Positions 929-8,612 of a stretch of 64,000 nucleotides of DNA are shown piece after piece. How positions within the stretch are numbered: position 1 is the first letter of the stretch; each line of letters begins with the position of its first letter. The notes beneath the pieces were generated by a model. That model saw only the letters and a list, made by a program, of their open reading frames with translations, searched no databases and was not told where the DNA came from. This DNA is from a virus, in the IMG/VR virus record IMGVR_UViG_3300042307_001176, positions 90,412 through 154,411 of that record, one strand, 5' to 3'. A program made the translations under genes and the position numbers.

Positions 929-966
929 TATATTTGTGAAACAAAATAACAAAGAGAACATATAAT
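929..966 (+). promoter_or_regulatory. Stacked promoters of tRNA operon 1
   Basis: TATATTTG (929-936, Bacteroidota -7 box) and GAAACA-N17-TATAAT (938-966). Confidence 0.6.
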
Positions 967-972
967 ACTCAA

Positions 973-1032
973 ATGAACAAAACAATTAACATATTACCTA
1001 TATCATTAAGACCGTCGTCAAGACGATCCTAA
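973..1032 (+). CDS. Attenuator leader peptide 1 (MNKTINILPISLRPSSRRS)
   Basis: Codons 7-19 are only ATA/TTA/CCN/TCN/AGA/CGA, matching downstream tRNAs; followed by antiterminator and terminator. Confidence 0.8.
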   Translation: MNKTINILPISLRPSSRRS

Positions 1033-1065
1033 AGGTCCTATGTTAATAAAAAATAATCATTAACT

Positions 1066-1099
1066 AAACCGGGACCTTTAAAAGTCTCGGTTTTTTTTT
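1066..1099 (+). terminator. Attenuator terminator, tRNA operon 1
   Basis: AAACCGGGAC/GTCTCGGTTT stem plus T tract; 1071-1080 can alternatively pair with 1030-1039. Confidence 0.85.
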
Positions 1100-1100
1100 G

Positions 1101-1112
1101 TGTTCTTTGACA
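1101..1112 (+). promoter_or_regulatory. boxA-like antitermination element
   Basis: TGTTCTTTGACA resembles rrn boxA TGCTCTTTAACA; same position in all three tRNA operons. Confidence 0.65.
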
Positions 1113-1129
1113 TGTTGGATTATAAAATT

Positions 1130-1219
1130 GGAGAGTTGCCAGAGCCAGGCTTAATGGATCAGTCTTGAAAACTGACGTAGCGAAAGTTACCGGGGGTTCG
1201 AATCCCTCACTCTCCGCCA
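1130..1219 (+). tRNA. tRNA-Ser(TGA)
   Basis: Cloverleaf, TCAGT-CTTGAAA-ACTGA, long variable arm, encoded CCA. Confidence 0.95.
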
Positions 1220-1222
1220 ATT

Positions 1223-1296
1223 GGTCCCGTAGCTCAGCTGGATAGAGCAACGCCCTTCTAAGGCGAAGGTCGAAGGTTCGAATCCTTCCGGGATCA
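1223..1296 (+). tRNA. tRNA-Arg(TCT)
   Basis: Cloverleaf, anticodon loop CTTCTAA. Confidence 0.95.
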
Positions 1297-1302
1297 CACA
1301 AA

Positions 1303-1460
1303 GCCCTCTGCCTAGCGCTGGGTATGGATCGAAGATAGAATATGCCTCTACAACGTAGACAGTTAGAATATTTCGGTATTCTTTAATGATATGCACACTT
1401 ATTCTCTAAATCGTGGGTTAGCACAGTTTGTATGTTCTGGGGATATTTAAAGACATACAA
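1303..1460 (+). ncRNA. Unassigned structured RNA within tRNA operon 1
   Basis: Several stems: TGCCTA/TGGGTA, TCTAC/GTAGA, AGAATA-TTTCGG-TATTCT, TTGTATGT/ACATACAA; no tRNA fold. Confidence 0.4.
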
Positions 1461-1463
1461 TTT

Positions 1464-1536
1464 CGGGATGTAGATCAGTTGGTAGATCGCCTGGTTTGGG
1501 ACCAGGAGGCCGTCAGTTCGAGTCTGGCCATCCCGA
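1464..1536 (+). tRNA. tRNA-Pro(TGG)
   Basis: CCTGG-TTTGGGA-CCAGG. Confidence 0.95.
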
Positions 1537-1543
1537 CATCAAT

Positions 1544-1617
1544 AGAGGCGTAGCTCAATTGGTTAGAGCACATGCCTTATACGCATGCGGTCACGAGTTC
1601 GACTCTCGTCGTCTCTA
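1544..1617 (+). tRNA. tRNA-Ile(TAT)
   Basis: CATGC-CTTATAC-GCATG; rare UAU anticodon. Confidence 0.9.
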
Positions 1618-1621
1618 CTTA

Positions 1622-1695
1622 GGTCCCTTAGCTCAGTAGGTTAGAGCAACTGACTCATAATCAGTAGGTCCACGGTTCGAGCCCGTGAGGGACCA
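1622..1695 (+). tRNA. tRNA with CAT anticodon, probably Ile2 (lysidine)
   Basis: ACTGA-CTCATAA-TCAGT with an Ile2-like body; separate fMet and Met candidates exist in the other operons. Confidence 0.8.
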
Positions 1696-1753
1696 CTAAA
1701 TTTTAAAGTCTTTAGGAGAACAAAAGTTCATGCTGGTTCAGATCCAACCTCTT
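1696..1753 (+). pseudogene. Possible decayed 3' part of a type II tRNA (Leu-TAA-like)
   Basis: CTAAA/TTTAG arm with TAA in the loop, variable hairpin GAAC-AAAA-GTTC, T-arm-like GCTGG-TTCAGAT-CCAAC; no D arm. Confidence 0.4.
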
Positions 1754-1778
1754 GTATTTTTTGGATATATAATAAATC

Positions 1779-2150
1779 ATGAATGATCATATTAGAATAT
1801 CCGGACTCGGTATAGAAATATACAAAAATGATATACCAGGAGTGAGATGGAATAAAGCTCAGACTTTTGCAGAATTTCTTAAAGATGGGTGGAGGTTGCC
1901 TACATTAAAAGAACTTGCTTTAATAAAAACACTAAGGGATGTTGGAGGCATAGGAAGATTTCCTGCGGAATATTCGGATTTTTCTGATTCATATTATTGG
2001 AGCGGAAAAGAAGGAGAAGCTGCCACTCTAAGAACTCAATTAAAAGACGGAAGTAGTAGTTATGCTTATTACTTTGATGTGGCTAAAGGAATTTCTTCAC
2101 ATAGTAAAAAAGCATACGATCTTAGGGTTAGGTTTGTCAGAGATATATAA
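1779..2150 (+). CDS. DUF1566/Lcl C-terminal-like domain protein
   Basis: GWRLPTLKEL, YYWS and VRFVRD motifs. Confidence 0.7.
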   Translation: MNDHIRISGLGIEIYKNDIPGVRWNKAQTFAEFLKDGWRLPTLKELALIKTLRDVGGIGRFPAEYSDFSDSYYWSGKEGEAATLRTQLKDGSSSYAYYFDVAKGISSHSKKAYDLRVRFVRDI

Positions 2151-2153
2151 TGT

Positions 2154-3005
2154 ATGGCAACAACAAGACCTTTTTCGTATAATCCAACGCAATCAACAAT
2201 TGCTGGAACTACTAATTTAGGTACCATATGTATAGGAGTATCTGATTTAGACTATGCTGCTAGCCCTGGAGGATTAACGTGGTGGATGGGACCGGATGAA
2301 GATAATTCTTATGTAGTATGCAAGGATGTACCAGCTCAAAATTTCCCTACTCCGTTAGGAAATATAGGCAATGTACAATTTTGGAGATGCACTAATACAG
2401 ATTTAGCATTTAGAGATATGGTATCTACAATAAGTGGTACTACACAAGCATCGGCTTCAGCAGCTAGTGATTGGTTAGCATCTAATAACTATTGGACTAA
2501 CAGAAATCCATATCTTGCAGGTCTATATAAAACAACTTACTCTGGATATTTCGCAGATTCAGTTAGTTTCTTTGCAACTGCAACTCCTCAAGCATTTGGA
2601 ACAAACCCAGCTACTTCTGTACAAACTACTGCAATATCAGAAGCAGCTAGTGGTGATGGTGATTATTTTAGTTGTCAATGGTTGGGTTATTTCAGTCCGA
2701 CTACTACTCAAACTTATACATTTTACACCAACTCGGATGATGCATCTTATGTGTGGGTTGGAGCAAATGCGATATCTGGATTTACTACAGCAAACGCAAC
2801 AGTCAATAATGGAGGTGCTCATGGTCCTATAGAGGCATCAGGTTCTATAGATCTAACTGCAGGAGTTTATTATCCTATAAGAATTCAATTCGGTGAAGCC
2901 GGCGGAGGTGATGTACTTACTTTCAATTATTCAACACCAACGATAGCAAAAACAACTAATGTAACAGGATTAGTTTTCTATAATACATCAACTAACGGAT
3001 TCTAA
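2154..3005 (+). CDS. PA14-domain protein (possible virion carbohydrate-binding)
   Basis: FSCQWLGYF..TYTFYTNSDDASYVW..NNGGAHG..YYPIRIQFGE; N-terminus shared with next gene. Confidence 0.8.
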   Translation: MATTRPFSYNPTQSTIAGTTNLGTICIGVSDLDYAASPGGLTWWMGPDEDNSYVVCKDVPAQNFPTPLGNIGNVQFWRCTNTDLAFRDMVSTISGTTQASASAASDWLASNNYWTNRNPYLAGLYKTTYSGYFADSVSFFATATPQAFGTNPATSVQTTAISEAASGDGDYFSCQWLGYFSPTTTQTYTFYTNSDDASYVWVGANAISGFTTANATVNNGGAHGPIEASGSIDLTAGVYYPIRIQFGEAGGGDVLTFNYSTPTIAKTTNVTGLVFYNTSTNGF

Positions 3006-3010
3006 AACAT

Positions 3011-7665: not shown

Positions 7666-7671
7666 CAACAT

Positions 7672-7748
7672 TGACATATAGCTCAGTTGGTTAGAGCGTT
7701 GATCTGATACGTCAAAGGCCGAAGGTTCGAATCCTTCTATGTCAACCA
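7672..7748 (+). tRNA. tRNA-Ile(GAT)
   Basis: TTGAT-CTGATAC-GTCAA, encoded CCA. Confidence 0.93.
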
Positions 7749-7753
7749 CATTT

Positions 7754-7826
7754 AGTCTCTTAGCTCAGTTGGCAGAGCGTTTGGTTTACATCCAAAATGT
7801 CGGGGGTTCGAATCCCTCAGGGACTA
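7754..7826 (+). tRNA. tRNA-Val(TAC)
   Basis: TTTGG-TTTACAT-CCAAA. Confidence 0.95.
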
Positions 7827-7828
7827 CA

Positions 7829-7910
7829 AGATTAGAAGCGGCGAATGGGGTTACTTCTCAGAACTTTTAAATTTGACCAAAAAACACCTCGCTCAAATAT
7901 TCTCTAATCT
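7829..7910 (+). ncRNA. Unassigned tRNA-sized structured RNA
   Basis: Ends pair (AGATTAGA/TCTAATCT); inner GCGA..GG/CC..TCGC stem. Confidence 0.4.
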
Positions 7911-7915
7911 AAACT

Positions 7916-7987
7916 GGGGATGTAGCTCAGCGGTAGAGCTCTCGACTGTTAATCGATAGGTCGCTGGTTCGAATCCAGCCTTCCCCG
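7916..7987 (+). tRNA. tRNA-Asn(GTT)
   Basis: TCGA-CTGTTAA-TCGA. Confidence 0.92.
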
Positions 7988-7992
7988 CAATT

Positions 7993-8074
7993 CGGAGTGT
8001 TGAGCAATTGGCTGCTCAGCTGACTGTAAATCAGCCGCCTTAAGGCATTGGGGGTTCGAATCCCTCCGCTCCGA
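7993..8074 (+). tRNA. tRNA-Tyr(GTA)
   Basis: GCTGA-CTGTAAA-TCAGC, variable arm. Confidence 0.92.
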
Positions 8075-8078
8075 CACA

Positions 8079-8147
8079 GTGTATCTGTAAGATATAGAGA
8101 CGGACAGTCCGACGGTTGAAGTGGATGCGTAATTCCACACGTCTCTA
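8079..8147 (+). ncRNA. Unassigned small three-way-junction RNA
   Basis: TAGAGACG/CGTCTCTA closing stem with two inner hairpins (CAGTC/GGTTG; GTGGA/TCCAC). Confidence 0.45.
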
Positions 8148-8150
8148 AAT

Positions 8151-8226
8151 GCGATAGTAGCTCAGTTGGTAGAGCACCGTCCTTCCAAGTCGGGGGTCGC
8201 AGGTTCGAATCCTGTCTATCGCTCCA
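8151..8226 (+). tRNA. tRNA-Gly(TCC)
   Basis: Anticodon loop CTTCCAA, encoded CCA. Confidence 0.92.
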
Positions 8227-8227
8227 C

Positions 8228-8300
8228 GGGGTAGTAGCTCAATTGGCTGAGCGCTTCCTTTGCAAGGAAGAGGATGTGGGTTCAAGTCCCATCTACTCCA
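8228..8300 (+). tRNA. tRNA-Ala(TGC)
   Basis: CTTCC-TTTGCAA-GGAAG; G3:U70. Confidence 0.95.
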
Positions 8301-8307
8301 CTTATAT

Positions 8308-8380
8308 GGCGAGTTAGCTCAGTTGGTAGAGCGTTGGAATCATACCCCAAAGGTCGGCAGTTCGAACCTGCCACTCGCTA
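8308..8380 (+). tRNA. tRNA-Met(CAT), elongator
   Basis: GGCGAGT acceptor; loop ATCATAC. Confidence 0.85.
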
Positions 8381-8382
8381 CT

Positions 8383-8459
8383 GTGACGGTAGCTCAGTTG
8401 GTTAGAGCGTCTGATTGTGGTTCAGAAGGTCGGGGGTTCGATTCCCCTCTGTCACCCCA
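8383..8459 (+). tRNA. tRNA-His(GTG)
   Basis: TCTGA-TTGTGGT-TCAGA, C73, CCA. Confidence 0.93.
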
Positions 8460-8460
8460 T

Positions 8461-8533
8461 GCCTTTGTAGCTCAGTTGGTAGAGCACTTCACTTGTAATG
8501 AAGATGTCGCAGGTTCAATCCCTGTCAAAGGCT
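8461..8533 (+). tRNA. tRNA-Thr(TGT)
   Basis: CTTCA-CTTGTAA-TGAAG. Confidence 0.95.
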
Positions 8534-8539
8534 CTAAAT

Positions 8540-8612
8540 TGTCCTGTGGTGTAATTGGCAACACGTCTGGTTTTGGACCAGAAGAGTCCAGGTTCGAGCC
8601 CTGGCGGGACAT
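8540..8612 (+). tRNA. tRNA-Gln(TTG)
   Basis: TCTGG-TTTTGGA-CCAGA. Confidence 0.95.

Follow-up and report, generated by a model that had tools for sequence, protein, structure and literature searches.

The role of transfer RNA (tRNA) genes in phages and their control have been under debate for decades. Codon compensation is one of the main proposals, and lately the replacement of tRNAs destroyed by host defence has been added (PMC10264068; PMC11555353; PMC11464382). How the expression of such genes might be controlled is the question raised by the IMG/VR virus record IMGVR_UViG_3300042307_001176, a linear sequence of 154,411 base pairs (bp) with a GC content of 33 % and a CheckV completeness estimate of 66 %. 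The window, i.e. the whole stretch of 64,000 nucleotides (nt) described here, is the final 64 kilobases (kb) of this record, and positions are given in window numbering. Three tRNA arrays are found in it, each preceded by a short leader open reading frame (ORF) and an intrinsic terminator. Judged from their sequence, these three units would be ribosome-mediated transcription attenuators which couple each tRNA operon to the decoding speed of its own codons; the probability of this reading is estimated at about 75 %.

According to ARAGORN, 24 tRNA genes, all on the + strand, lie between 1130 and 8613 in three arrays (Table 1), and a scan of the entire contig with this program detected no tRNA gene outside them. 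Rfam agrees on all 24 and adds a tRNA-like element with a GCU anticodon at 7579-7665. The order of the elements is the same in all three units: a -7 promoter box, a short ORF opening at the first AUG, an intrinsic terminator, a boxA-like motif and the tRNAs. This common layout had been described in an initial annotation of the DNA and was confirmed by ARAGORN together with terminator, ORF and motif scans. The sequence TAHHTTTG is the -7 element of Bacteroidota promoters, with transcription starting five bases after its G (PMC6847099). In each unit the leader ORF begins at the first ATG downstream of such a box, the distance from the predicted transcription start to this ATG (973, 5223 and 6844) being 28-34 nt. 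Just 26-36 nt separate the terminator from the first tRNA in all three units, and a pattern scan of these gaps found neither a TAHHTTTG box nor a sigma-70-like site. Because no -7 box fits into such a gap, the arrays would be expressible solely via read-through of the terminators. A TAHHTTTG match within operon 3 (7868-7875) was considered as an internal promoter and rejected, being kept in none of six relatives.

The leaders are enriched in codons that are read by the tRNAs of the operon behind them. The codon background was taken from 147 long ORFs of the same genome, and start codons were excluded from the own-codon counts. For leader L1, 10 of 18 codons belong to its own operon (background 18 %, binomial P=4e-4), and codons 7-17 and 19 consist of Ile-ATA, Leu-TTA, Pro-CCN, Ser-TCN and Arg-AGA. 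Two TTA codons, one CGA and one ATT of L1 lack a reader in operon 1. The orphan TTA codons are explained by five relatives (L004-L008) whose operon 1 carries an additional tRNA-Leu(UAA) after Met, absent from the window; if this tRNA is counted, codons 7-17 are an unbroken run of own codons in all five. The gene seems to have been lost or replaced in the window while L1 retains its two TTA codons. At the corresponding site (1697-1778) the window holds an unrelated sequence ending in a T-arm-like stretch. Codons 16-22 of L2 form a run of seven own codons (Glu, Asp and Leu-CTN) which is unique among the 837 short ORFs of the genome. As to L3, 31 of 34 codons are own codons (background 63 %); codons 1-30 are all read by operon 3, and the foreign ones are codons 31-33. 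All 16 classes of the array are represented in its 35 codons (P about 1e-4), a coverage reached by 0.014 % of simulated leaders and by 15 of 35,538 real 35-codon windows. The AGY codons of L3 depend on a Ser(GCU)-like gene that ARAGORN does not call.

The match extends to the isoacceptor, as had been suggested for Ser, Arg and Ile. With unchanged peptides, the isoacceptor of the own operon is used at 19 of 22 codons for Ser, Arg, Ile and Leu (Leu was included in this test), compared to 11.4 expected (P=1.9e-4). L3 encodes Arg by CGC and CGA, though AGA accounts for 78 % of the Arg codons of the genome. The possibility that the leaders merely mirror a phage codon usage matched to phage tRNAs was rejected, as codons of the other two operons are under-represented in every leader (negative off-diagonal z scores); the codon match is therefore operon-specific.

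At or near each leader stop codon lies a segment of 9-10 nt, here called segment 2, which is complementary to the 5' arm of the terminator. The calculated duplex energies are -12.3 kcal/mol for L1 (P=0.009 against random windows of the locus), -14.1 kcal/mol for L2 (P=0.001) and -12.5 kcal/mol for L3 (P=0.012); the complementarity noted in the initial annotation was recovered in all three units. Including eight further units from relatives and from Cellulophaga phage phi4:1, complementarity near the leader stop is present in 11 of 11 (P=0.0005-0.07 each). To simulate masking by a ribosome, the nascent RNA was folded as far as the terminator loop while the ribosome footprint was kept single-stranded at one codon after the other. 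The antiterminator formed for stalls up to codon 16-17 in L1, 22-23 in L2 and 29-30 in L3, and was blocked by a ribosome on the last three to seven codons or on the stop codon. The simulation thus reproduces the proposed trp/his-type geometry, in which a ribosome at the stop codon masks the antiterminator and a stall further upstream frees it. The simulated stall boundaries fall where the own-codon runs end, and the foreign codons 31-33 of L3 are situated beyond the boundary, where stalling no longer frees the antiterminator. At the sequence level a 5' ORF, codon enrichment, a terminator with no later promoter and a maskable antiterminator are all present.

From these elements we infer the following mechanism. 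Host RNA polymerase would start at the Bacteroidota-type promoter and transcribe the short leader ORF, the translation of which would bring ribosome and polymerase into a race. If translation is fast, the ribosome on the last codons or the stop codon would cover segment 2, the terminator would form and transcription would end before the tRNAs. If the ribosome lags anywhere in the own-codon run, segment 2 would be free to pair with the emerging 5' arm of the terminator, and read-through would result. The polymerase would then meet the boxA-like element, which probably loads Nus factors, and transcribe the untranslated, structured tRNA array. The net outcome would be a negative feedback: a tRNA set would be made when decoding capacity, that is charged tRNA of host and phage, is short, and switched off when it is sufficient.

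To a stalled ribosome, absent and uncharged tRNAs are indistinguishable, and the units have the geometry of a classical attenuator. The signal might then be amino-acid starvation (uncharged tRNA) and not tRNA abundance, which would tie tRNA synthesis to the nutrition of the host. We consider this unlikely, because an extra tRNA gives no relief of an amino-acid shortage and has no obvious benefit, and because a match at the level of isoacceptors (Arg as AGA versus CGN) matters for tRNA but not for amino-acid supply.

The boxA-like motif GYTCTTTGAMAT (12 nt) occurs exactly three times in the contig, each time just 3' of a leader terminator; 0.1 occurrences are expected in the window compared to the three seen. 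The motif agrees with the boxA consensus GYTCTTTAANA (PMC5725501) at 10 of 11 positions, this consensus being gamma-proteobacterial. Like ribosomal RNA (rRNA) boxA and lambda nut sites, the motif opens a long untranslated structured transcript. In contrast to these, it is located downstream of a regulated terminator in a tRNA operon, as a putative NusB/NusE site. In 151 Bacteroidota genomes the boxA-like motif was searched for behind a T-run. At the 20 places inspected, no tRNA gene or 16S start was found within 1.5 kb after the motif, and many of the matches appear intragenic.

This element also bears on a different route by which leader translation could act, namely Rho-dependent termination in the spacer or an effect on processing or stability of the precursor. 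The tRNA precursors are untranslated and exposed to Rho, and boxA, a known anti-Rho device, has a look-alike after each unit. Such a route is nevertheless very improbable in view of the strong, canonical and conserved intrinsic terminators with their T7-T9 runs and of leader ends which are specifically complementary to the terminator 5' arms.

With regard to ribosome-mediated attenuation, further evidence comes from relatives of the window. These were retrieved via the HAD protein of operon 2 and comprise 80 IMG/VR loci, 45 of which have tRNA genes in the retrieved DNA; a megablast search against GenBank phages gave similarity at the tRNA level only. Seven close relatives (78-93 % identity of the HAD protein) hold the three units. 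The box of promoter 1 and the bases next to it are invariant or nearly so in five relatives, and promoter 2 reads TA(C/T/A)(A/T)TTTG across six. The leaders are conserved as reading frames, their loss having been named at the outset as a result that would speak against the idea: all four indels within the leader frames are multiples of three, while spacer indels measure 1-2 nt, and the L2 frame is kept in six relatives despite indels of 12 and 3 nt. An alternative 25-codon frame overlapping L3 (6893-6970) is not kept in L007 or L008. Substitutions and two 3-nt deletions have left the own-codon mask of L3 unchanged in five relatives, and that of L1 is identical in five diverged relatives in which ATA, TCN and TTA are exchanged among positions. 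In the antiterminator helices 93 % (L1), 80 % (L2) and 100 % (L3) of the cells are paired in relatives. The L1 helix displays one two-sided change, the L3 helix three one-sided G-C/G-U changes in five relatives. In unit 2 of L007 and L008 a different terminator stem is accompanied by a correspondingly different leader end (-18.6 kcal/mol, P=0.0005). The expectation of compensatory changes in the antiterminator was hence borne out in part: pairing is kept in every relative, but double changes are few among the 5-6 distinct relatives.

The same design recurs in Cellulophaga phage phi4:1 (NC_021788; genus Lightbulbvirus), which has a single tRNA-sized stretch of similarity with the window. This phage possesses three arrays of compositions unlike those of the window, each with a matching leader, a terminator and a complementary segment. 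Its first leader (L001:11714-11782) contains an 11-codon run of Gln, Arg-CGT, Leu-TTA, His, Glu, Leu-CTA and Pro, and its first array encodes Pro, Glu, Gln, His, Leu(UAG), Leu(UAA) and Arg(ACG). The second leader, for which the GTG start at 12674 is our own reading (it is annotated within gp075), has codons for Thr, Lys, Gly, Ile, Val, Asp and Ala as well as Arg-AGA; the array consists of Ala, Lys, Ile, Gly, Met, Asp, Thr, Val and Arg(UCU). The third leader (14420-14518) is rich in Asn, Tyr, Cys, Trp, Phe and Ser and precedes Tyr, Ser, Asn, Trp and Phe tRNAs. Arginine is split between units in phi4:1, with CGT accompanying Arg(ACG) in one and AGA accompanying Arg(UCU) in another. One promoter region of 30 nt is duplicated before two of the leaders (L001:11688-11716 and 12630-12657). 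In the first leader the ATG follows the G of the -7 box at a distance of five bases, and the messenger RNA of this leader may be devoid of a 5' untranslated region.

The covariation of leader codons with array anticodons was examined by permutation. Of the eight independent units curated, the window and phi4:1 contributed three each, and two came from other IMG/VR lineages. None of the other permutations, 40,320 in all, reached the summed enrichment of the true pairing of leaders and arrays, under loose as well as strict wobble rules (Fisher P about 1e-11; 2e-11). In a set chosen by rule, comprising 49 units in eight clusters with no manual choice of ORFs or tRNAs, 4 of 40,320 permutations do as well (Fisher P=1.7e-6). 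The covariation across phages on which the initial annotation had staked its proposal is thus found in both sets.

Several observations weigh against attenuation by translated leaders, or at least against its simplest form. TAHHTTTG by itself is not enriched in the window (54 seen, 56 expected), and the promoter argument therefore rests on position and conservation. By simple count the own codons of L2 are modest (9 of 28 compared to 19 % background, P=0.07). Most tRNAs of operon 3 are represented by one or two codons in L3, which makes the sensitivity to a single tRNA uncertain. A 'protector' 1:2 helix is clear in L1 alone; 86 % of its cells are paired in relatives, with zero compensatory changes. 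Two-sided changes in the antiterminators amount to one per helix at most, and column-wise covariation was not significant and did not beat shuffles in alignments of 5-6 distinct sequences. Furthermore, the antiterminator forms in the nascent fold even without a ribosome, and the full-length equilibrium fold yields the terminator. The untranslated default may consequently be read-through rather than the superattenuation of trp. According to these models termination looks as if it needs a ribosome that finishes the leader in time, a race which would sum many single-codon delays. Coupling of transcription and translation in the Bacteroidota hosts is assumed. Finally, leaders do not track their arrays over short times as far as the sequences compared indicate, since in a distant family with 37-codon leaders several phages lost Asn, Lys or Thr tRNAs while the leader stayed unchanged. 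In one member of this family, L021, which has lost its Asn, Lys, Thr and Pro tRNAs, eight leader positions are altered, and four of these changes lead to Ile, Phe or Trp, which is the expected direction.

Two of these points, the promoter motif that is not enriched and the scarcity of true compensatory changes, would also suit fixed leaky dampers or the ends of small genes, with incidental ORFs or micropeptides and the codon match as a by-product, but this is the least probable of the explanations considered, given that the operon-specific match is seen again in an unrelated phage whose tRNA sets are different, that relatives conserve the codon set and not the peptide, that all 11 units have the complementary segment at the stop codon, and that the tRNA genes of the contig would be left with no other promoter.

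As putative ribosome-mediated attenuators the units resemble trpL and hisL in having a promoter-proximal ORF with regulatory codons and a terminator whose 5' arm has an alternative pairing partner around the leader stop codon; termination is favoured when the ribosome has reached this codon and read-through when it stalls upstream, as predicted for the phage units. They differ from these in that their targets are tRNAs and not biosynthetic enzymes, so that the product would act directly on the sensed step, and in that 5-16 codon classes would be sensed instead of one. The mixing of codons for several amino acids in one leader is shared with the thr leader (Thr, Ile) and the ilvGMEDA leader (Ile, Leu, Val), where a delay at any one of these codons increases read-through. 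In the phage, however, the roster is set by the array anticodons down to the isoacceptor (AGA/CGN, ATA/ATY, TCN/AGY), and a single 35-codon leader holds up to 16 classes. A permissive search with the Rfam leader families returned as the best hit Thr_leader at 988-1100, with 22.8 bits compared to a threshold of 55 bits; at E=0.9 this match is regarded as noise. Leader-peptide attenuation of a decoding component for the sensed codon is known from pheST with its pheM leader, a bacterial chromosomal system in which the target is a synthetase gene and one amino acid is concerned, whereas the phage units target tRNAs. T-box riboswitches likewise use antitermination to answer the state of a specific tRNA via an anticodon-codon match. 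Typical of Firmicutes, they bind the uncharged tRNA directly and independently of translation, and their targets are synthetase and amino-acid genes; Rfam gave no match to the T-box (RF00230) or to a riboswitch at E<=1 in 800-9200. Full-text literature searches found no description of leader-peptide attenuation of tRNA genes. What is probably new is the target together with the roster principle, namely tRNA genes which would be controlled, isoacceptor by isoacceptor, through the decoding speed of their own codons.

If this is true, these would be the first described tRNA genes regulated in such a manner, a direct feedback on the tRNA pool; leader-peptide attenuation would gain a new class of targets, and phages would partition their tRNAs into separately sensed sets. 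A wider idea is more speculative, and we hold it to be rather doubtful: the attenuators might be a general device of large tRNA-carrying phages, not confined to one lineage, and serve as codon-resolved sensors which, through stalling at the matching leader codons, switch on replacement tRNAs and linked RNA-repair functions (in this phage HAD_SAK_2 within operon 2 and the nearby Ro60) after tRNA cleavage or depletion by a host defence or after host shut-off. Under that sensor reading phage tRNA arrays would represent an inducible counter-defence and not constitutive codon compensation. The idea is open to a direct test, as phi4:1, which has the same design, and its host are available as cultures. 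For annotation it follows that small 'hypothetical proteins' in phage tRNA regions, e.g. gp075 of phi4:1, may be regulatory leaders.

Table 1 Elements of the three leader-tRNA units and genes in their surroundings (window numbering unless a contig coordinate is given)
Feature	Position	Strand	Remarks
Promoter 1, -7 box TAHHTTTG	929..936	+	pattern match; predicted start ~941
Promoter 2, -7 box	5183..5190	+	pattern match; predicted start ~5195
Promoter 3, -7 box	6798..6805	+	pattern match; predicted start ~6810; conserved in relatives
Leader ORF L1, 19 codons + stop	973..1032	+	first ATG of predicted transcript
Leader ORF L2, 29 codons + stop	5223..5312	+	first ATG after box
Leader ORF L3, 35 codons + stop	6844..6951	+	first ATG after box
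L1 segment 1, 1:2 'protector' helix	985..999	+	pairs 1033-1047; in minimum free energy fold
L1 segment 2, antiterminator 5' strand	1030..1040	+	begins at stop codon; 1030-1038 pairs 1072-1080, 9 bp
L2 segment 2, antiterminator 5' strand	5297..5307	+	5298-5306 pairs 5337-5345, 9 bp
L3 segment 2, antiterminator 5' strand	6939..6950	+	ends in stop codon; 6940-6949 pairs 6984-6993, 10 bp
Intrinsic terminator T1	1066..1099 (hairpin 1066-1093)	+	10-bp stem, -12.9 kcal/mol, T9 run
Intrinsic terminator T2	5334..5365 (hairpin 5334-5358)	+	10-bp stem, -12.5 kcal/mol, T7 run
Intrinsic terminator T3	6978..7016 (hairpin 6978-7011)	+	14-15-bp stem, -17 kcal/mol, T8 run
boxA-like motif 1	1102..1113	+	match to GYTCTTTGAMAT
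boxA-like motif 2	5372..5383	+	match to GYTCTTTGAMAT
boxA-like motif 3	7014..7025	+	match to GYTCTTTGAMAT; invariant with flank in five relatives
tRNA operon 1	1130..1696	+	Ser(UGA), Arg(UCU), 166-nt spacer, Pro(UGG), Ile(UAU), Met(CAU); ARAGORN, Rfam
tRNA operon 2	5387..5711	+	Glu(UUC), Asp(GUC), Met(CAU), Leu(UAG); ARAGORN, Rfam
tRNA operon 3	7038..8613	+	Phe, Lys, Trp, Arg(ACG), Cys, [Ser(GCU)-like], Ile(GAU), Val, Asn, Tyr, Gly, Ala, Met, His, Thr, Gln; extent by ARAGORN
tRNA-Ser(GCU)-like, class II	7579..7668	+	unusual D arm, stem mismatches; Rfam tRNA-Sec model
HAD_SAK_2 phosphatase gene	5713..6282	+	Pfam PF18143, E=4.7e-23; HAD domain of 'Swiss Army Knife' RNA-repair proteins
Ro60/TROVE-domain gene	G000:C1:89232-89471		~1 kb before window, upstream of operon 1; PF05731, E=2e-8; 560-codon open frame
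RNA-ligase-family gene	C1:72571-73053		PF09414, E=1.5e-24

The Ser(GCU)-like gene of operon 3, not called by ARAGORN at 7579-7668, scores 38.3 bits on the tRNA-Sec model of Rfam (threshold 47 bits). It is 92-100 % identical in five relatives, and L007 and L008 carry a canonical Ser(GCU) in the corresponding place; a class-II tRNA-Ser(GCU) is the probable identity of this element. Its start is overlapped by a Lys/Arg-rich ORF of 45 codons with many AGA (7451-7588) within operon 3. The conservation of this ORF in the relatives is just 42-73 %, so that it may be spurious or evolve fast.

Some of the spacers between the tRNAs are conspicuous. The 166-nt spacer between Arg(UCU) and Pro in operon 1 (1298-1463) is 93-100 % identical in L004-L006 and without an Rfam match; in L007 and L008 it is absent and the Arg and Pro tRNAs abut. 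In operon 3 the spacer from tRNA-Val to tRNA-Asn (7828-7915) is conserved at its ends and encloses a stem whose sequence varies among the relatives (GGGG/CCCC in L003, AGAGAG/CTCTCT in L007 and GGGAG/CTCCC in L008); leader 3 would govern its transcription. The spacer from tRNA-Tyr to tRNA-Gly (8076-8150) bears a long-range inverted repeat at its ends (AGAGACG ... CGTCTCT) and may be a processing hairpin or a decayed tRNA.

The HAD_SAK_2 gene is probably co-transcribed with operon 2, since it begins 2 nt after tRNA-Leu; terminator and pattern scans of this gap found no terminator and no -7 box. Together with the Ro60/TROVE-domain and RNA-ligase-family genes it forms a context which fits a concern with damaged tRNA, though it does not constitute a test of the idea of a defence sensor. 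An HNH endonuclease gene (8660-9148; PF14279, E=1e-16) directly follows the final tRNA array. In relatives the arrays are broken at differing places by insertions of 0.5-2 kb, which suggests a traffic of mobile endonucleases through the tRNA regions. Between operons 1 and 2, repeated gene ends make up a mosaic in the region 3950-4300: a second copy of the start of ORF 4232-4816 is present at 3964, the final 10 codons of ORF 2154-3005 are repeated at 4032-4062, and the common start of the paralogous ORFs at 2154 and 3011, one of them with GLEYA/PA14 domains, is repeated at 4068. The mosaic looks like a recombination scar.

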